DNA from: a candidate division WWE3 bacterium
GTDB lineage: Bacteria; Patescibacteriota; WWE3; 2-01-FULL-39-13
Assembly: GCA_943354835.1 (NCBI GenBank)
Contig: CALRDH010000005.1
Location: forward strand, 1-47,095
Direction of reading: 5' to 3'
DNA: 47,095 nt
Shown: one piece after another, positions 33,303 through 41,868 of the stretch
How the letters are laid out: every line of letters starts with the position of its first letter
Numbering within the stretch: the first letter of the stretch is position 1
Program-made: the position numbers and the translations under genes
The notes under the pieces: model-generated
What the model was told of the DNA's origin: nothing
Databases searched by the model: none
The model's input: only the letters and a program-made list of their open reading frames with translations

Positions 33303-33686
33303 TTATTTAGGTTCGAGGGCAGATAATATTTCTTGTTTTATTTGATCCGGCATTAAAGAATCTTTTATTAAATATCCATCCGCACCAAGTTCGAATGCTT
33401 CTTTTATCACTTTTTCCCTTGATAGAACTGTCATCATAAATATTTTTATATTCTTATTTTTTGGATATGATCTAAGTTCCTTAAGGACTTTTATTCCGTC
33501 TATCTTTGGAATCATAAGATCTAAAAGTATAAGATCTATATCCTTGTTGTCTTTTACGAGATCAATTGCTTCTTGGCCGTCTTTTGCCTGAAGTATTTCG
33601 AAACCTTCCATACTTAGGTATTCAGAATAGACTAGTCTTAGAGAATTTTCGTCTTCGACTATCAAGATTTTATACTTCTTATTCAC
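33303..33686 (-). CDS. Stand-alone response regulator receiver (CheY-like)
   Basis: ILIVEDE, LILLDLMIP (phospho-acceptor Asp), MT, ADGYLIK; no output domain. Confidence 0.93.
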   Translation of the reverse strand: MNKKYKILIVEDENSLRLVYSEYLSMEGFEILQAKDGQEAIDLVKDNKDIDLILLDLMIPKIDGIKVLKELRSYPKNKNIKIFMMTVLSREKVIKEAFELGADGYLIKDSLMPDQIKQEILSALEPK

Positions 33687-34851
33687 TATAAGTCAGGCTA
33701 ACAGAATTCTTTGGAATTGTAAACCAAAAAGTGCTTCCTTTGCCAAGTTCAGATGTAAACCCAATTTTTCCGCCAAGTTCTTCGATTATTCTTTTTGATA
33801 TATAAAGTCCAAGTCCTGTACTCGCACCTAATACTTGTTGTTTAAGCCCGGCATTTCCTCTTCCAAATTTTTGAAATAATCTTGGGTAATCTTTTTTAGC
33901 AATTCCTGGACCTGTATCTGATACTGATAATTTTATTTCTTTTCGTGTTGATGAAACCCAAATCTTTATGTGCCCACGCTTAGTGTATTTGATGCTGTTA
34001 CTTATTAAATTATCGAGTATTTCAATAATTTTATCTCTATCTGTGAAGACTTCCTTTATTCTTGTTTTAGAAAATATTAGCTTTAACTTTTTCTTTTTGA
34101 GTAATTCTTTATAGCTTGTTGTTACTTCTTCGATTAACTGATTTATGTCTACTTTCTTTTTTTCAATTACTAGTCTTCCCTGCTCGACTCGTGAAATATC
34201 TAATAAATTACTGACTATTTTGGAAAGTCTTTTAATGCCTTCGTCTGTTTCCCAAAGTAAACGTTTTTGACTTTCATTTAATTCTGCTTTTAATGTATGC
34301 TCAAACATCCATAAATTTGTTTTTATTATTGTTACAGGAGTTTTTAGCTCATGTGAAGCAATTGAAATGAATTCGTCTTTTTCTTTGTCAAGTTCAATTT
34401 CGTCTGTAATATCAGAAAGTGAAATTACACATTCTTTTACTTCAGAGTTTATAAGTATGTTATTAAAATTTAATTTGTAGTAAGAATCTTCATCGGCTTC
34501 TCTTTTGACAATAATTGGATCTCCCAGGTCTTTTTTTACTTTATCTTTTTTTACAAACGCATAATCTTTTACTTTAATTGATTGTGAGTTTTTGTGCGAA
34601 ATCAAGTTTATAATATCATCCGCGTGTCTGCCAATTGCATTTTCTTTACTTATATTAAAAGCAATTTCTGCACTTGAATTAAAAACAACAATTTTGAATT
34701 TTTGATCTATTGAAAAAACAATTTCAGCAACTTGAAACAAAACTTCTTGTATCCTTTTTCGTTCTTTATTCAGCTCAAGATTATTGATATAAAGCTCTTG
34801 GGCAATTTGCTTTAATAGCTGATTTGAATCTGGGTTTACTGTAGCTTCCAT
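33679..34851 (-). CDS. Cytoplasmic PAS-domain histidine kinase
   Basis: PAS (IVVFNSSAE), H-box ASHELKTP, NLISNSIKYT, DTGPGI, STGLGL; no TM segment. Confidence 0.93.
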   Translation of the reverse strand: MEATVNPDSNQLLKQIAQELYINNLELNKERKRIQEVLFQVAEIVFSIDQKFKIVVFNSSAEIAFNISKENAIGRHADDIINLISHKNSQSIKVKDYAFVKKDKVKKDLGDPIIVKREADEDSYYKLNFNNILINSEVKECVISLSDITDEIELDKEKDEFISIASHELKTPVTIIKTNLWMFEHTLKAELNESQKRLLWETDEGIKRLSKIVSNLLDISRVEQGRLVIEKKKVDINQLIEEVTTSYKELLKKKKLKLIFSKTRIKEVFTDRDKIIEILDNLISNSIKYTKRGHIKIWVSSTRKEIKLSVSDTGPGIAKKDYPRLFQKFGRGNAGLKQQVLGASTGLGLYISKRIIEELGGKIGFTSELGKGSTFWFTIPKNSVSLTYSE

Positions 34852-34854
34852 ATA

Positions 34855-35142
34855 TTATTTAAGATTTTCGGGTATGTCAGAAGACTCTAATTCGTGTCCA
34901 AGTTTTTTAATAGCTTCTTTAGAAACTTCAATTGAAGCCTTGCCAAAAAGATTTGCATATTGGTCAACTAAATCTTTTAAAACAATTTTCGGATCACCCT
35001 TAATTTCAACCTTATTATTTTTTACAGATAAATTATCAACAAGTGCTGTCATTTGAATTGAAAGCGCCTTTCCTACTATCTTCTCTTGCTCCTTGGTAAT
35101 TGTAAGAATTGCTTTTTCATATAAATCTAATTTTGTGCTCAT
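34855..35142 (-). CDS. Small (95 aa) protein of unknown function in the signalling operon
   Basis: Tightly coupled ORF between the TM protein and the kinase; EQEKIVG...GDPKIVLKDLVDQYANLFGKASIEVSK. Confidence 0.75.
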   Translation of the reverse strand: MSTKLDLYEKAILTITKEQEKIVGKALSIQMTALVDNLSVKNNKVEIKGDPKIVLKDLVDQYANLFGKASIEVSKEAIKKLGHELESSDIPENLK

Positions 35143-35963
35143 TTTAGCTTTTTCCCTGCTCCTATTTTATCAACTACTTCGCCAAACTGTAAAATTGCAA
35201 TGGACATTAAGAAATATGCGCAGATATAAACTAAATCGCTGATGCCTGCTGGTTCCCATGTATCTTGAAAGGTTCTATATAAGAATGTTGTGTCGGCAAT
35301 ATATTGAATTATAAGTGCGGCAATAATTGATAAAACCATTTTTTTCATCACACCACCAAGTGTTTCTTTTGATAGATAGTAGGCTAATATTGCCATTGAG
35401 ACATATATTGCTTGTCCGAATGGATATCCGAAGTCTAGAAAGATTAATATTGGTTGAGTCCAGTCGAATTCATATGAGCTCAAAAAGATTGTATACGATG
35501 TAAGTATCATCAAAACCGGAAGTGCAATCGATACAACTTTTTTTGATGTATATGCTTTTAGTGATATTTTAGATCCGGACGCGGTTGATATTAACCAAGC
35601 CCCAATTATATAAATTGGTATACTGCCAAAGTAAAATATTTCTCCGAATGATGGATAGGGGTTTTCGATATTATATACAAAAAAGTATATTGCATATGAA
35701 ATCTGTCCTAAAAAATTAAGAGTTAACCCTGCTGAAAATGCGAGAAGGGCTTTCCCTACTACACTTTTTATGCCGCCCCACTTTTTAGCAATTGAAAAAC
35801 CAGCAATTCCACCAATACAGGCAATTATTCCGTATGAGTCAGTAAACAGGTTGTTGTAAGTTTCGTTATCAACTTCAATTAGATTCAAATAGAACCAGGC
35901 AAATGTATAAAAGATAAATATTACTAACAATAATCGAAAAATCTGATTGTTCAGTAAGGACAT
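35139..35963 (-). CDS. Stand-alone 7-8 TM sensor-like membrane protein (likely start MSLL at 35963)
   Basis: PYPSFGEIFY, DFGYP and IADTTF...GISDLVY resemble membrane sensor domains normally fused to GGDEF/HK domains (recalled motif, not searched). Confidence 0.7.
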   Translation of the reverse strand: MSLLNNQIFRLLLVIFIFYTFAWFYLNLIEVDNETYNNLFTDSYGIIACIGGIAGFSIAKKWGGIKSVVGKALLAFSAGLTLNFLGQISYAIYFFVYNIENPYPSFGEIFYFGSIPIYIIGAWLISTASGSKISLKAYTSKKVVSIALPVLMILTSYTIFLSSYEFDWTQPILIFLDFGYPFGQAIYVSMAILAYYLSKETLGGVMKKMVLSIIAALIIQYIADTTFLYRTFQDTWEPAGISDLVYICAYFLMSIAILQFGEVVDKIGAGKKLK

Positions 35964-35970
35964 TAAAACC

Positions 35971-35998
35971 ATTATACATGCGAAATATGTTCAAGCAA
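35971..35998 (-). promoter_or_regulatory. Sigma70-like promoter TTGCTT-N16-TATAAT, 7 nt upstream of ATG 35963
   Basis: Read directly from the minus strand. Confidence 0.5.
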
Positions 35999-36007
35999 AA
36001 GACAATC

Positions 36008-36036
36008 TTTACTATAGGGCTACCTAATGATAAACT
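36008..36036 (+). promoter_or_regulatory. Candidate promoter TTTACT-N17-TAAACT (with extended TG), 7 nt upstream of the in-frame GTG at 36044
   Basis: Read directly from the sequence; divergent from the signalling operon promoter. Confidence 0.4.
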
Positions 36037-36043
36037 TATAAAA

Positions 36044-36958
36044 GTGAATTTTGATCTTCCTATTTTTAAGAAGATTTCGCTTTCCGATAAGGGACAGATA
36101 GACAGCATATTCCAGAACTTTTCTCCATACTGCGACTTTAATTTTTCTAATATATACAATTGGAGTTCGATTTCAAAACCAAGCGAGATAGCTTTTGTAA
36201 ACGAAAATCTCGTTGTCAAAATGAAGGATTTTGTTGAAGACCATGTTGTTGTCTCCTTTATTGGAAATAATAAGATTAGTGATACAGTTTCACATTTGTT
36301 ACATCATTTTGATGAACTTTCAATGATCCCGGAAGAATGTATAACTAAAGAATTATTGGAAAGAGAAGATTTGCTGATAGAGGAAGATCGCAATAATCAT
36401 GATTATATTTTGTCATTAAAGGATTTGATTGATTTGCCAGGAAATAGATTTAAATCGAAAAGAAGAAAAGTAAAAAAATTTTTAGAACAAAACCCAGATC
36501 ATACTGTTCAGGTAATAGATTTAAAAAATGATGATGTTTGGAAATTAATTGAAGATTTAACATTCCTTTGGAATCATTTAAAAAGAGGTAAGGCTTCTGA
36601 TATAAAAAATGAATTGAATGCTTTAAAAAGACAAATTAGTCTAGCCAATGTCTGTGAGATTATATTTGTTGGCGTATACATTGACGGAAAGTTAGTAGCT
36701 TTTACTACGAATGAAATTAAGCATGGAGGCTTTGCAATTGGCAGTTTTGGAAAGGCGGATTTTAGATATGATGGTATCTTTTCATATTCCGAGCACGTTA
36801 CAGCAAAACACCTTTATAGCCTTGGTTGTAAGTTCTTAAATTATGAACAAGATTTAGGACTTGAGGGTTTAAGAAAATCAAAACTTTCATGGAAGCCCGT
36901 AAAATTCTTAAAGAAATATAAAATTAGGAAAGTTGAAAAAGTTAAAGTAGTAAAGTAA
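36044..36958 (+). CDS. DUF2156 / MprF-C-terminal-like GNAT-fold protein (ORF open from 35978; GTG 36044 preferred)
   Basis: DFNFSNIYNW, DYIL..KDL.DLPGNRFKSKR, KAD..Y.G, LNYEQDLGLEGLRKSKLSWKP. Confidence 0.8.
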   Translation: MNFDLPIFKKISLSDKGQIDSIFQNFSPYCDFNFSNIYNWSSISKPSEIAFVNENLVVKMKDFVEDHVVVSFIGNNKISDTVSHLLHHFDELSMIPEECITKELLEREDLLIEEDRNNHDYILSLKDLIDLPGNRFKSKRRKVKKFLEQNPDHTVQVIDLKNDDVWKLIEDLTFLWNHLKRGKASDIKNELNALKRQISLANVCEIIFVGVYIDGKLVAFTTNEIKHGGFAIGSFGKADFRYDGIFSYSEHVTAKHLYSLGCKFLNYEQDLGLEGLRKSKLSWKPVKFLKKYKIRKVEKVKVVK

Positions 36959-36959
36959 A

Positions 36960-38051
36960 GTGAACCATATGCGCAAGACTCCCTATACAATATACGATCT
37001 TGATAAATTATCCAAGAATTATTTGAGATTAAATAAGATTTTTAAGGATAAGAATATATTTTATGCGGTTAAGGCAAATAAATTAGCACCTATTTTGGAA
37101 ACAATGGTTTCTCTTGGTAGCAACTTTGAAGTTAATACGCCACCTGAATTTGATGCGGTTTTGAATGCTGGCGGAACTATAGATAAAATTATTAACAGTG
37201 CCCCTGTTAAGACGATTGATTGCATAGAATATATGTATTCAAATGGCGTTCGGAAATTCGCTTATGATTCTTTTTGTGAAATAGACAAAATTTCAAAATA
37301 CGCTAAAGGTTCGAGCGTATTTCTTAGAGTTTATACAAGTAATGAAGGTAGCGGACAGGCCTTAAATACAAAATTTGGAGTGAATATAAAAGATGCGCCT
37401 AAATTAATCGATTACGCTATATCTGCTGGACTAGATCCTTTTGGTATAACTTTTAGTGTAGGTTCACAATGCGACAATATTGATAATTGGGAAGAAGCTA
37501 TAAAACTTGTCGCACCTCTTTTTAATGAATATCCAAGTTTGACAACTCTTGATATTGGAGGAGGTTTCCCTATTGAATATGTTAGAAGTTCACTTTCTAT
37601 AAATGATATCTCAAATGTCATCGAGAATTCATTAAAAAAGTATTTTAATAAGAAAATAAATTTATATCTTGAACCTGGAAGATACATAGTTGGAAATACT
37701 GGGACTACTGTATCAAGCGTGATTGGCACTAAAATTAATGAAGGTATAAATTGGTGTTTTGTTGATGTTTCAATATTTGGTGGGTTTTTAGAGTTATTTG
37801 AATTCGACGATTGGTTTTCTTACAAGATTACTACAAATAGTAAGTCAAATGAGAAGCTTTTATATAATATTGCGGGTCCAACCTGCGATGGTTGTGACAT
37901 ACTAGCGAAAAATATTCTTTTGCCAAAGATTGATATGAATAGCTTAATTTATTTTCATAGTACTGGAGCATATACGAATGAGTATGCTTCAAATTTCAAT
38001 GGGTTTCCTATGCCTACACATGTGTTTTTAAAAAAAGGAGTTGAACAGTGA
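36960..38051 (+). CDS. Group IV PLP-dependent ornithine/lysine-type decarboxylase
   Basis: FYAVKAN (PLP Lys), LDIGGGFP, EPGRY, GPTCDGCD, GAYT. Confidence 0.88.
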   Translation: MNHMRKTPYTIYDLDKLSKNYLRLNKIFKDKNIFYAVKANKLAPILETMVSLGSNFEVNTPPEFDAVLNAGGTIDKIINSAPVKTIDCIEYMYSNGVRKFAYDSFCEIDKISKYAKGSSVFLRVYTSNEGSGQALNTKFGVNIKDAPKLIDYAISAGLDPFGITFSVGSQCDNIDNWEEAIKLVAPLFNEYPSLTTLDIGGGFPIEYVRSSLSINDISNVIENSLKKYFNKKINLYLEPGRYIVGNTGTTVSSVIGTKINEGINWCFVDVSIFGGFLELFEFDDWFSYKITTNSKSNEKLLYNIAGPTCDGCDILAKNILLPKIDMNSLIYFHSTGAYTNEYASNFNGFPMPTHVFLKKGVEQ

Positions 38052-38965
38052 CCTGGTTAATTTATTCCATAATTCCAGCATTGTTGTGGGCAAGTGTTAA
38101 TTATATCGATAAGTATTTGATTGAGAAGTTTTGTAAGGGGCTTAATGTTGGTGCTCTTGTGCTATTTTCTTCATTTATTGGAATTCCAGTTTCTATTTTT
38201 ATTTTTGCTATTTACCCGGGTGTTTTTGATATCAACTTTTTTGAAATGTTTATTCTTACACTTTCTGGCAACTTTTTTTTGCTTGGAGTTGTTTTTTATC
38301 TTTATGCTTTAAGCAAAGATGAAACCTCGACTGTAGCGCCACAACTTTTAATGATTCCTGTTTTTAGTGGGCTATTTTCATATTTATTTCTTGGTGAAAA
38401 ATTATCTTTTATACAAATGATCGGGGTGCTTACAGTAATTTTAGGCTCGTTGCTTTTATCTATCGATATTAACGATTTAAGAAAACCGAAAATCAAATTT
38501 CCGATTTTTGTGTTAATGCTTTTTTCGTCTGCATTTATGGCGTTAAATGCTGTTATATTTAAATTTGGCGTTGTTTCTGATGTTTCATTTTGGACCGTCG
38601 CTTTTTGGGAGCATATTGGATTTGTTATCTTTGGATTCTTTTGCTTTATATTTGTAAAATCATACAAAATCGAATTCATACATTTAGTAAAAAAGAATGG
38701 ACTAGGCATTCTCTCTTTAAATTTTTTAAATGAAGTAATAACAATTATCGGCAATGTGATATTTCATTATGCAACTCTACTCGCCCCTATAGCGATTGTT
38801 GAAACTGTCACTGAAGGAATTCAACCGTTATTTGTGATCTTGTATGGAATATTATTAACAATTTTCTTTCCAAAAATTATTAATGAAAACATAGAAAGAA
38901 AATCATTACTTCAAAAAATACTAGCAATTGGAATAATGTATCTTGGATTGCAGTGTTTAGTGTAA
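38048..38965 (+). CDS. EamA/DMT-family transporter
   Basis: 10-TM two-repeat pattern, LFLGEKLS.IQ.IG, IINENI..K.L.QK. Confidence 0.88.
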   Translation: MTWLIYSIIPALLWASVNYIDKYLIEKFCKGLNVGALVLFSSFIGIPVSIFIFAIYPGVFDINFFEMFILTLSGNFFLLGVVFYLYALSKDETSTVAPQLLMIPVFSGLFSYLFLGEKLSFIQMIGVLTVILGSLLLSIDINDLRKPKIKFPIFVLMLFSSAFMALNAVIFKFGVVSDVSFWTVAFWEHIGFVIFGFFCFIFVKSYKIEFIHLVKKNGLGILSLNFLNEVITIIGNVIFHYATLLAPIAIVETVTEGIQPLFVILYGILLTIFFPKIINENIERKSLLQKILAIGIMYLGLQCLV

Positions 38966-38975
38966 GTTTGAAACC

Positions 38976-39800
38976 ATGCCTACGGCTTCTGGTACGTCTT
39001 TAAAAATTGATAGTTCAATATCAAAATCTAATGAAATCTATGGTAGTAGTTTTCCTATTAGGGTAGATTACGAATCTTACCTTCTTTCACATGGTTATAT
39101 AGATGATGCAAAGGACGCTTGGAGTGATCCAAAACTTGTAACTATGATTCAACAACATTGGCATCATACAGGTCAAAATGGTTGTGTATTTGCACAATCT
39201 ATAGCTTATAAACGAGAAGAAATAGGCTGGGAATCAGATGTTATCTATAATTTAAACCCAGAAACTTTAAATTACATAGACAATAGGATTAGTGTTGCAA
39301 TTTCTTCATTGGATAACGAAGTTTTAAGTTTGTTATTCCCCAATATCATAACCCCAGAACAATTAGTAGTTTTGATTGTTTGGTTATCCAACGTGCCTTG
39401 TATGAATATAGAATTCGATATACCGATTGACGACTATACGATTATTGGATTGAGAATCCCACTTGGCAACGATGGCGAGGTACAGTCTTGGCTCGTCGGA
39501 TTTGCTCCAATGGATTATTTACCAAACACAAGGCAATCTCCCATCACAGAAATCGCTATTAGAACAAAGCTTAAACATGATAAGCTATTTCATAGACTTA
39601 ATCAAAATAAAAATGAAGCTCACTTGGCTGATGTGCAATTAGATTACAGTGAAGATGTTATGGAAAAATTATGGCAAGCGACTAAGGCAAGAACAAGTTT
39701 TCTTCTTGGTGGTGAAGTGGAAAGAAGGAATATAAAATCAGCTAGCGCTAAGGTCACAATAGCTGTACCGACCGATTTATGGATATCAAAAAGAAATTAG
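38976..39800 (+). CDS. Hypothetical soluble protein (possible remote YqcI/YcgG-like)
   Basis: GQNGCVFAQ and GFAP..YLP.TRQSP..EIAIR motifs; the similarity is only recalled. Confidence 0.6.
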   Translation: MPTASGTSLKIDSSISKSNEIYGSSFPIRVDYESYLLSHGYIDDAKDAWSDPKLVTMIQQHWHHTGQNGCVFAQSIAYKREEIGWESDVIYNLNPETLNYIDNRISVAISSLDNEVLSLLFPNIITPEQLVVLIVWLSNVPCMNIEFDIPIDDYTIIGLRIPLGNDGEVQSWLVGFAPMDYLPNTRQSPITEIAIRTKLKHDKLFHRLNQNKNEAHLADVQLDYSEDVMEKLWQATKARTSFLLGGEVERRNIKSASAKVTIAVPTDLWISKRN

Positions 39801-39820
39801 TTATTTAATTATTTAAAAAC

Positions 39821-40450
39821 ATGTTAGAAGTAGAAAAACGAGTGTTAATTAAAAAATCTGATTTACCTGCACTAATTTTAAGCTTACATCAAGAAGGTAA
39901 ACAAATTATTGAGTTTAAACGATTCACAATGGTAAAAATTGATAATAGCGACTTTATCCCTAAAAAGGATAGCCCCATAGATATTAAGATACGAACATCA
40001 AAAACAGAGTCGTTATTCACGGTAAAGGTAGGAAATTGGCATGCTGACACTGCTAGAAAAGAAAACGAAATCCATTTTGATAAAAATGAGATTGGCGAAC
40101 TTATCTCAATGTTAGTTTCCTTAGGATACAAATATTTTGTTGCTATGTATGTAAATAGAATGAAATTTGAACTAAACGATATGACAATCACTATAGATAA
40201 TTACCATCATTTAGAAGATTGTTTAGTAGAAGTTGAAATATTGATAGAAGCACTTGGGAATAAGGATTATGCAGAGATTAAAATACAAGAGTATTTAGAA
40301 AAATATAATTTAAAACCACTAGGCTCTCAAGACACTATAAACTTTATTACGAAGATAAACATGGTAAAGCAAACGCAAATAGACTTTGAGAAAGTCAGCA
40401 TCCAAGAATGGGAAAGTAAGTGGGAAAAATTTATTCGTTGCGAGGTTTAA
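39821..40450 (+). CDS. CYTH / triphosphate tunnel metalloenzyme
   Basis: N-terminal EVEKR, IRT, LFTVK, RKENE, ITID, EVE. Confidence 0.85.
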   Translation: MLEVEKRVLIKKSDLPALILSLHQEGKQIIEFKRFTMVKIDNSDFIPKKDSPIDIKIRTSKTESLFTVKVGNWHADTARKENEIHFDKNEIGELISMLVSLGYKYFVAMYVNRMKFELNDMTITIDNYHHLEDCLVEVEILIEALGNKDYAEIKIQEYLEKYNLKPLGSQDTINFITKINMVKQTQIDFEKVSIQEWESKWEKFIRCEV

Positions 40451-40463
40451 TTCAGTCTTCATA

Positions 40464-41027
40464 ATGCTTACAACTCAACTTGGCGGAAAATTCTCAACTG
40501 AAGACTCTGGCTTGTTCACTTTAAAGAAAGTGCTTTTGAACGCAGGTATTAATGTCGCTTATCCAACAGGGAATTCTATCGTTACTGTCCAAAATGGTGT
40601 CCCGCTAACTTTTGATCCAAAAACTGAACACAGATCATTTTATGAGATTGAAATCGACTACCTTAAATCAATTAAGGACTCTGACATACATATCATACAT
40701 AACAAGCACATTGATAATCTTGGATACATAGGTGAAAGTGCAAGCGTAGAGTTAGCCTATGCCTTGGTTCATAACAAGCCTGTTTGCTTGATGTATCCTC
40801 CAACTTTCTCTGATAAAGTGCGTGATTCTATAAAGCAAATAATTAATAAGAATGCGGATTTATTTTTAACAACAAATCTGATTGTCATTAATAATGATGA
40901 GCTACACAACACTTTGTCCGATTATGCATCAAAAGCTATAAAATATAGATTAAATGTTTTAGAGGAAATTGAAATTTATAATATAATCAAAAAGACTTTA
41001 AATTCTTATATAATTAGGGATGTTTAG
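40464..41027 (+). CDS. Nucleoside 2-deoxyribosyltransferase-like protein (start moved to ATG 40464)
   Basis: YLKSIKDSDIHII...GYIGESASVELAYALVHNKPV carries the NDT-type E-L-x-YA...KPV motif. Confidence 0.65.
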   Translation: MLTTQLGGKFSTEDSGLFTLKKVLLNAGINVAYPTGNSIVTVQNGVPLTFDPKTEHRSFYEIEIDYLKSIKDSDIHIIHNKHIDNLGYIGESASVELAYALVHNKPVCLMYPPTFSDKVRDSIKQIINKNADLFLTTNLIVINNDELHNTLSDYASKAIKYRLNVLEEIEIYNIIKKTLNSYIIRDV

Positions 41028-41868
41028 CGATAAGATCTCAAATTCATCTAGTGAAGAAGTGAATGGCAGTTTAATCGAATTTGAATTAATAGGTCAAGGA
41101 CTGGAACGGTATACGATCAACCTGGAGCTATTGTATCCAAACACACAAGACCGCATACGTTTTGAACAACGTTGGCCTGGGTTTTACAATTCTGATTCTG
41201 TCAATGCCGATATAATGAGGAAAAACGGGGACGACTTAGTTTATATTTCTGAATCAATAGTGCCTATTGTTGAAAGCAATAAACCACCATTACTTTTTGT
41301 ATTTGGTAACCCTGCTCCTCATTCAGTAAAAGCTGGCATCCCATTTGCGTACGAAGGAAATGGAAAAGAGCATAGAATTTGGAAAGTATTAAAAAGTACA
41401 TCGTTAATAGATTTCGGTCTAGATCACAGCGAACTAAATCCGAACGATATGAATTTACACAGAAAGAATCGACTGCATAATCTTGAATATAACTCAAAGT
41501 ATAAGATAGGTTTTATACAATATTTTTCTATGCCTTCGACACCAAGCAAAATTCCTTGGACAGGGGTGAGCGGACTATCTAGGTTGTTTGGCAATGATGC
41601 CATGAGACTAATTGAAGCCACAGAGCTAAATCGTATTAAAGCAATTGTTGATTCATTTATGGCAAATGGTGGGGTTATAGTTACCTTTCAAAAAGATGCA
41701 TATAATGGTTTAAAATCAGAACAAATGTTTAATTATTCCATAGATTTAGCGAAGGCAAATATGCTAAGTGGAGAGTCTATGTTTGGGAAAGATTATAAGT
41801 TAATTTGTGCGCCTCCGACAAGATTGCTATACAGTAAAGCAATGTTTAACACATTAAGTAATCTATAA
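41020..41868 (+). CDS. Hypothetical protein with a Mug/UDG-superfamily-like motif
   Basis: LLFVFGNPAPHSVKAGIPFAYE...RIWKVL resembles the Mug motif IFCGINPG.SS..GFPFAHP.NRFWKV. Confidence 0.55.
   Translation: MFSDKISNSSSEEVNGSLIEFELIGQGLERYTINLELLYPNTQDRIRFEQRWPGFYNSDSVNADIMRKNGDDLVYISESIVPIVESNKPPLLFVFGNPAPHSVKAGIPFAYEGNGKEHRIWKVLKSTSLIDFGLDHSELNPNDMNLHRKNRLHNLEYNSKYKIGFIQYFSMPSTPSKIPWTGVSGLSRLFGNDAMRLIEATELNRIKAIVDSFMANGGVIVTFQKDAYNGLKSEQMFNYSIDLAKANMLSGESMFGKDYKLICAPPTRLLYSKAMFNTLSNL

Follow-up and report, generated by a model that had tools for sequence, protein, structure and literature searches.

A decarboxylase, DUF2156 transferase and EamA transporter opposite a predicted split sensor kinase: a candidate small-molecule signalling cassette in a WWE3 bacterium

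Positions 36044-38965 of contig CALRDH010000005.1, from a candidate division WWE3 bacterium (assembly GCA_943354835.1), carry three co-directional open reading frames (ORFs) on the plus strand, for a DUF2156 transferase, a decarboxylase dependent on pyridoxal phosphate (PLP) and an EamA transporter, and the question raised is what this trio makes and for which recipient. The window analysed is the whole stretch of 47,095 nucleotides; the genome, from an ultra-small organism of the phylum Patescibacteria, is 884 kb with a completeness score of 100%. An initial annotation of the window proposed a product that modifies charge or is directed at a host, and missed a divergent receptor-adaptor-kinase operon on the opposite strand. 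As this operon is conserved, a sensed signal is more likely than a charge-modifying lipid product. From the sequence evidence, the trio may be the synthesis and export arm, and the divergent operon (33303-35972) the sensing arm, of a small-molecule signalling cassette, a reading with about as much for it as against it. The same even confidence applies to the more specific proposal that the exported product of the trio is a diamine, acylated or aminoacylated, which the 8-helix receptor reads. The features concerned are as follows.

36044-36958, plus strand: DUF2156 gene with a GTG start (304 aa, PF09924)
36960-38051, plus strand: fold-III PLP decarboxylase gene (363 aa, PF02784 and PF00278)
38048-38965, plus strand: EamA/DMT transporter gene (305 aa, PF00892)
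35964-36043, no strand: divergent intergenic region with an extended -10-like box for each strand
35139-35972, minus strand: 8-helix membrane receptor, stand-alone, probable start ATG 35963
34855-35142, minus strand: helical adaptor of 95 aa, fused to the receptor or the kinase in relatives
33679-34851, minus strand: soluble PAS-HisKA-HATPase histidine kinase, His167 present
33303-33686, minus strand: receiver-only response regulator, phospho-acceptor Asp present, no output domain

Conservation of the locus

Neighbourhood analysis, a check named in the initial annotation, upheld a pair of genes rather than the trio. Among 60 relatives, DUF2156 was found in 15 and the decarboxylase in 3, and a DUF2156 gene adjacent to a PF02784 gene was present in 2 of 401 genomes of the phylum, namely the source genome and a genus mate; other family members have DUF2156 adjoining EamA, without a decarboxylase. 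A wider protein search recovered a distinct decarboxylase subclade (support 100/98) that lies directly after DUF2156 in 8 of 8 readable loci, down to 47% identity. At all eight, the pair is opposite the 8-helix receptor, with the adaptor and histidine kinase also present where the contig reaches that far, and this divergent operon is thus the constant partner. EamA follows the pair only in the three loci of the source genus. These two distributions mark the pair as old and the trio as an arrangement local to the source genus.

The receptor is present in 46 of the 401 phylum genomes. A search blind to the enzymes gave a strong match at 42 loci. An enzyme that makes or modifies amines lies within 5 kb at 37 of these; a kinase is likewise present at 37, and a DMT/SMR transporter at 31. 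Of the five loci that lack an amine enzyme, three are truncated by the end of a contig. Receptor and amine-enzyme set are kept together in about one in ten of the phylum's sampled genomes. The enzyme slot is occupied by DUF2156 at 22 of the 42 loci and by a protein like ornithine decarboxylase (ODC) at 12, and its other occupants are SpeD-like, deoxyhypusine-synthase (DHS)-like, NNMT, GAMT-like, PRMT-like, SET and GNAT proteins. SpeD-like proteins of the candidate phyla radiation (CPR) are proven ornithine decarboxylases (PMC10407285).

Close relatives of the DUF2156 protein (E<1e-55) lie beside the receptor in 22 of 23 genomes, and in the 23rd the neighbours are a HisKA_7TM kinase and a pyruvoyl arginine decarboxylase. 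This belongs to a parallel arrangement, in which HisKA_7TM-type kinases stand beside either ODC and a GNAT-like protein (sometimes fused) or DUF2156 and pyruvoyl arginine decarboxylase. More distant DUF2156 genes of the CPR form a separate group without receptor, kinase or amine-enzyme surroundings.

Phylogeny of receptors and kinases

Kinase and receptor trees were obtained from a single set of 40 loci. In the tree of the kinase core, sequences cluster according to host family (supports of 100 for f32, 90 for f122, 82 for f39 and 100 for f1+f4), and grouping by enzyme set is rejected in the approximately unbiased (AU) test (p 5e-48 and 3e-6). In the receptor tree, clusters correspond to the enzyme set, and the host families f32, f39 and f122 are rejected as groups (AU p 9e-80, 1e-78 and 4e-54, respectively). 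The source receptor clusters with other receptors from loci with DUF2156 and ODC (98/96), and the source kinase with its family (100). Receptors move with the enzymes, and kinases stay with the host lineage.

This pattern resembles that of the quorum-sensing loci CqsA-CqsS, LqsA-LqsS, ComQXPA and agrBDCA, where a synthase lies beside a multi-helix membrane sensor kinase and sensor and synthase are swapped together, the kinase core being inherited vertically; in agr and ComQXP, the parts exchanged together form specificity cassettes. The WWE3 locus differs from them in that its enzymes have no homology to those synthases, the presumed signal would be a modified diamine, three separate proteins serve as receptor, adaptor and kinase, and the regulator has no output domain.

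Enzymes and transporter of the trio

The DUF2156 protein matches PF09924 over profile positions 10-296 of 298 (E 2e-19, 70.2 bits against a cut-off of 27.5), and its best match in the PDB, and sole close structure, is 2HQY (E 1.6e-22 with the single sequence, 3e-43 with a profile). As judged by these matches, it is a free-standing double-GNAT transferase of the 2HQY/BT_3689 type. It shares with BT_3689 (2HQY) and Helicobacter pylori HPB8_1270 a full-length match, the double GNAT fold, a basic helix and a C-terminal DLG..GLR..K motif; these proteins differ in being without a known small-molecule substrate and in their reported donor, as 2HQY is reported, on indirect evidence, to bind acetyl-CoA, and HPB8_1270 behaves as an acetylase and affects RNase J acetylation (PMC10700544). 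The basic alpha(+) helix, at residues 133-146 with a net charge of +8, is strongest (+5 to +8) in the DUF2156 clade paired with ODC. Such a helix is required for tRNA use in ErgS (PMC8913301); being found in 2HQY too, it does not settle the donor. The family profile fails to reach the solved catalytic domains of MprF. The use of an aminoacyl-tRNA donor, given as established in the initial annotation, is therefore less secure than that for this subfamily, though the alpha(+) helix is intact, and an aminoacyl-tRNA and an acetyl- or acyl-CoA appear about equally probable as donors. The absence of an MprF flippase domain was confirmed, since the protein has no clear transmembrane segment. With respect to CoA supply, searches of the genome recovered neither CoaE nor a domain of ADP-forming acetyl-CoA synthetase; an E1-type dehydrogenase pair is, however, encoded within a sugar cluster. 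A complex prediction for DUF2156 with the receptor and adaptor scored 0.00, which is not evidence either way.

The best PDB matches of the decarboxylase are lysine/ornithine decarboxylases (5GJM, E 1e-54) rather than diaminopimelate (DAP) decarboxylases (best E 6e-27), and it is 63% identical to a candidate division WWE3 protein matching the copy of the genus mate, which places the organism in the Patescibacteria/CPR. By sequence it is an alanine-racemase-fold (fold III) enzyme of the ornithine/lysine/arginine type. Its best structural relatives are 5GJM, 2PLJ and the PBCV-1 arginine decarboxylase A207R, with which it shares the Schiff-base Lys and five further residues, K38, E238, R241, C309, D310 and Y338 being the equivalents of Lys69, Glu274, Arg277, Cys360, Asp361 and Tyr389; the glycine loop is also kept. 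It differs from them in having Ser166 in place of the PLP-stacking His197, Phe in place of Tyr323, and a specificity loop with an insertion and a variable Asp332 position. At the His197 position, 8 of 10 subclade members have Ser or Thr, and 70 of 70 readable other homologues have His. His197 contacts PLP and is conserved, and an inactive insect ODC has been noted to carry His197Asn (PMC3543441), so that the activity of the enzyme may be low or altered. The initial annotation had read the GPTCD..D motif (residues 306-313) as pointing to ornithine or lysine and not DAP. The preference for ODC over DAP decarboxylase was borne out, but the motif does not fix the substrate, since ODC-type enzymes have repeatedly evolved into arginine decarboxylases (PMC13625781), and arginine may be the substrate here.

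None of SpeD, SpeE, agmatinase, DHS, HSS or BpsA was found in the source genome. A diamine would therefore have no ordinary onward route, which favours its use by the neighbouring gene product.

The EamA protein matches PF00892 with 50.7 bits (cut-off 28.2) and has about 10 hydrophobic segments, of which a crude scan gives nine, missing the N-terminal one. Decarboxylase, double-GNAT transferase and DMT transporter would plausibly form a line in which a compound is made, modified and exported. To this extent the earlier proposal of a diamine that is made, aminoacylated and exported stands, while its donor and the substrate taken from the motif do not stand as worded. In valanimycin biosynthesis, the decarboxylase VlmD makes an amine and VlmA, an enzyme of the DUF2156 fold, aminoacylates it from tRNA. 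The WWE3 cassette differs in having no N-hydroxylase or seryl-tRNA synthetase, and it is linked to a receptor instead.

Sensing operon

The 8-helix receptor has no Pfam family, and 0 of 16 members matched a sensor family, including HisKA_7TM (PF16927). Its structural model (pLDDT 87) matches in fold, at TM 0.65-0.74, the membrane input domains found in GGDEF, PAS and kinase proteins. In 53 homologues, the positions of E111, D180, D227 and D246 are 94-100% Asp or Glu and are predicted to lie in the outer halves of the helices, and basic residues mark alternate loops as cytoplasmic. The outer acidic positions would suit a cationic ligand. Homology of the receptor to GPCRs or rhodopsin was considered and rejected, the PDB matches being of the generic helical-bundle kind (Z up to 11, rmsd 4-6), as was homology of the adaptor to the N-terminal subdomain of H-NOX, where the likeness is weak (Z 6.2, Foldseek E 0.6).

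Receptor and kinase occur as natural fusions (L038 and L039), as do receptor and adaptor (L031 and L146) and adaptor and kinase, and because of these fusions the three proteins are, as judged by their relatives, one split sensor kinase. In the source family, the cassette sits in a type IV pilus locus, between pilin/adhesin genes and pilMNO.

Operon structure and selection

The initial annotation had taken a 1-nt gap and a 4-nt overlap within the trio to indicate translational coupling. The overlap (GTGA, between the decarboxylase and EamA genes) is kept in two orthologous loci, whereas the gap between the DUF2156 and decarboxylase genes hangs on the choice of start, being 1 nt with GTG 36960 and 10 nt with ATG 36969 (4 and 6 nt in orthologues). 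As junctions of 4 nt or less are ordinary in the window (19 of 37 co-directional junctions), those of the trio show one operon and carry no special signal.

A longer DUF2156 frame is open from 35978. GTG 36044 is the likely start, because orthologues begin at its equivalent and an extended -10-like box lies 7 nt upstream in three orthologues. The boxes of the divergent intergenic region (plus strand 36028-36036, minus strand 35978-35971) are each 7 nt before a start codon, and their conservation in the three orthologues suggests two leaderless transcripts; they are pattern matches only, and a promoter scan gave an outcome at chance level. Across the genome, extended -10 boxes occur 5-9 nt ahead of start codons, in the same arrangement, at 59 of 683 long ORFs, which suggests that leaderless transcripts are frequent.

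Each gene of the trio is single-copy in the genome. Compared with one close orthologous locus, dN/dS was 0.054 for DUF2156, 0.092 for the decarboxylase, 0.116 for EamA and 0.056 for the adaptor. All three trio genes are under purifying selection.

Proposed mechanism and alternatives

In the proposed mechanism, the decarboxylase would convert scavenged ornithine, lysine or arginine to a diamine, onto which DUF2156 would put an acyl group, either an amino acid from aminoacyl-tRNA or an acetyl or acyl group from CoA. EamA would export the acylated diamine, and the 8-helix receptor, as its conservation and topology suggest, would bind the cationic product in an outward-facing acidic pocket. The receptor would signal via the 95-aa adaptor to the soluble kinase and then to the receiver-only CheY-like regulator, a physical linkage that the natural fusions support. 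Given the position of the cassette inside the type IV pilus locus in the source family, the output might, speculatively, be pilus activity or host attachment.

Several observations weigh against this mechanism. EamA is not adjacent at 5 of the 8 loci with DUF2156 and ODC, and DUF2156 is without a nearby decarboxylase at 19 receptor loci and ODC without DUF2156 at 10, so that the two enzymes are not obligate partners. Active-site changes are frequent in module decarboxylases (His197 to Ser, Thr or Asn, and Cys360 to Gly or Leu). The receptor tree fails to reject the family group of the source genome, f1+f4 (p 0.107), resolution in the DUF2156 tree is poor, and the groups for the AU tests were named after the trees had been seen, under a quick single-matrix LG+G4 model. 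Moreover, neighbouring genes can be co-transferred without any matching of ligand and receptor. The pilus location is specific to the source family, other families carrying the cassette at other sites.

The repeated loss of ODC catalytic residues, seen only in receptor-linked clades, would be expected if the receptor instead read host or environmental amines or amino acids, with EamA importing or clearing them and the enzymes inactivating the cue or acting as partly degenerate co-sensors. In one variant, the co-sensors would bind ligand in the manner of an antizyme inhibitor and report metabolite or charged-tRNA levels to the kinase. The chemically unlike proteins in the enzyme slot, including the protein-methyltransferase-like SET and PRMT folds, and the host dependence of CPR bacteria also favour such cue sensing. 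However, the Schiff-base Lys, the Cys and the Asp are intact in the source decarboxylase (dN/dS 0.09), and the recurring enzymes, which comprise three unrelated decarboxylase families, DHS and ODC-GNAT fusions, make amines and do not remove them. Joint swapping of receptor and enzyme also suits private signals better than a shared host cue. Taken together with its variant, cue sensing is doubtful, though the best placed of the alternatives. That DUF2156 is a protein acetylase or aminoacylase acting on signalling or pilus proteins, with the decarboxylase and EamA handling polyamine supply, appears improbable. The role of HPB8_1270 in RNase J acetylation and the acetyl-CoA that 2HQY is said to hold (PMC10700544) speak for it, together with the status of 2HQY as the only close structure and the frequent occurrence of DUF2156 without a decarboxylase, but it leaves unexplained both the small-molecule methyltransferases, GNATs and DMT/SMR transporters in the same slot and the one ODC subclade that is always attached to DUF2156.

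Two further accounts retain an aminoacyl-tRNA donor. The version in the initial annotation, an exported aminoacyl-diamine that is host-directed or charge-shielding and that the two-component operon only controls or accompanies, would fit the operon structure, the strength of the basic helix in the ODC-paired clade and the constant presence of aminoacyl-tRNA even in a reduced genome. It is a poor candidate, as the regulator has no DNA-binding domain and the receptor is exchanged with the enzymes, which a mere regulator would not need. The least probable account, considered very unlikely, is an MprF-like split synthase that aminoacylates a lipid, the flippase being EamA or the 8-helix protein. 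The PF09924 domain and positively charged alpha(+) helix are common to MprF/aaPGS, ErdS and ErgS, and free-standing fungal DUF2156 proteins aminoacylate a lipid (PMC8913301). The source protein differs from these enzymes in having no flippase or aminoacyl-tRNA synthetase fusion, and from MprF in having no sequence match to the solved domains, beyond the reach even of the family profile, and in its neighbours, which suggest amines and not lipids. No PgsA-type gene (PF01066) was found in the 100%-complete genome, where lipids may come from the host, and the sole PF03706 gene belongs to a cluster of glycosyltransferase genes on a different contig; both findings make a lipid product unlikely. The 8-helix protein, moreover, is fused to kinases and not to DUF2156.

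If the trio does make the ligand of the receptor, the product would represent a new signal class, and the locus would provide a substrate for the long-orphan 2HQY subfamily of DUF2156 as well as a new membrane sensor domain. The broader proposal of a phylum-wide language of modified diamines, comprising an aminoacyl-diamine autoinducer made from aminoacyl-tRNA, a split receptor-adaptor-kinase, pherotype-like swapping of cassettes and control of pilus-based attachment, is unlikely in its entirety. Most biosynthetic capacity has been lost in CPR bacteria. The literature searched includes no description of the module, of the receptor and adaptor families or of the presumed signal chemistry, and a survey of CPR quorum-sensing genes, which looked for homology to systems already known, contains no mention of polyamines or decarboxylases (PMC7567580). 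The enzyme families are known, as is the logic of synthase, exporter and sensor.

Related loci

Receptor-linked decarboxylases include an ODC-like clade (L089-L091, L093-L095 and L097; e.g. L090:5907-7052) with Gly for the catalytic Cys360, two members also having His197Asn. Together with a receptor clade of its own, it moves among four or more CPR families, and is possibly of other chemistry or a pseudoenzyme. A fusion of ODC with a GNAT-like protein lies beside a HisKA_7TM kinase at L151:7001-10904 (P0078), with further cases in P0085, P0087, P0105, P0109, P0113 and P0131, and in L096, L123 and L125 a member of that GNAT-like family is encoded as a protein of its own next to ODC and 7TM kinases. 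At L100:4217-9309, the receptor module is flanked by SpeD-like, deoxyhypusine-synthase (SpeY-like) and SET-domain genes, which points to a homospermidine-type product.

SpeD-family genes were considered as a stand-in for ODC, being present in 14 of 14 ODC-lacking WWE3-class module genomes and absent from G000 and G001. Replacement is unsupported, since most unlinked copies lie beside or are fused to a BpsA-like aminopropyltransferase (recognised by motif and not by family scan) and so are probably true AdoMetDCs. An AdoMetDC-family gene beside or fused to this aminopropyltransferase occurs in many WWE3-class genomes (L156-L161, L163, L165 and L166); the source genome is without both. Among 29 module genomes, PvlArgDC was found in 2 and a fold-I decarboxylase in 0.

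Complete modules were also found at L040 and L041, labelled 'uncultured Gammaproteobacteria'; their receptors and the L041 kinase fall among CPR sequences, and the bins may be mislabelled. Decayed module genes are present at L028:4093-4840, L073:6100-6991 and L086:13559-15071 (a frameshifted DUF2156, an EamA fragment and a receptor with internal stops). As judged by their sequences, the broken copies are due to recent decay in some lineages.

Flanking genes

Beside the response regulator, within the type IV pilus locus, the segment 20826-33301 encodes a surface protein of 3445 aa. A second surface protein in this segment is split into ORFs of 508 and 187 aa, corresponding to one ORF of 707-727 aa in genus mates.

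Downstream of EamA, positions 38976-41868 hold a separate cassette of four genes, encoding a 274-aa protein without an assigned family and CYTH, NDT-like and UDG-like proteins. As these genes are absent after EamA in genus mates and found elsewhere without the module, they are, by this distribution, a separate insertion. The 274-aa protein (gene at 38976) was considered as a YqcI/DcsA-like N-hydroxylase of the pathway. This was rejected: 16 homologues gave no Pfam match, and the gene travels elsewhere with CYTH and two more genes and is missing after EamA in genus mates. The 274-aa family has 53 homologues, including proteins of Bacillota, Bacteroidota and Actinomycetota and one fused to CYTH, and has invariant Trp, His, Cys, Asp and Arg residues.

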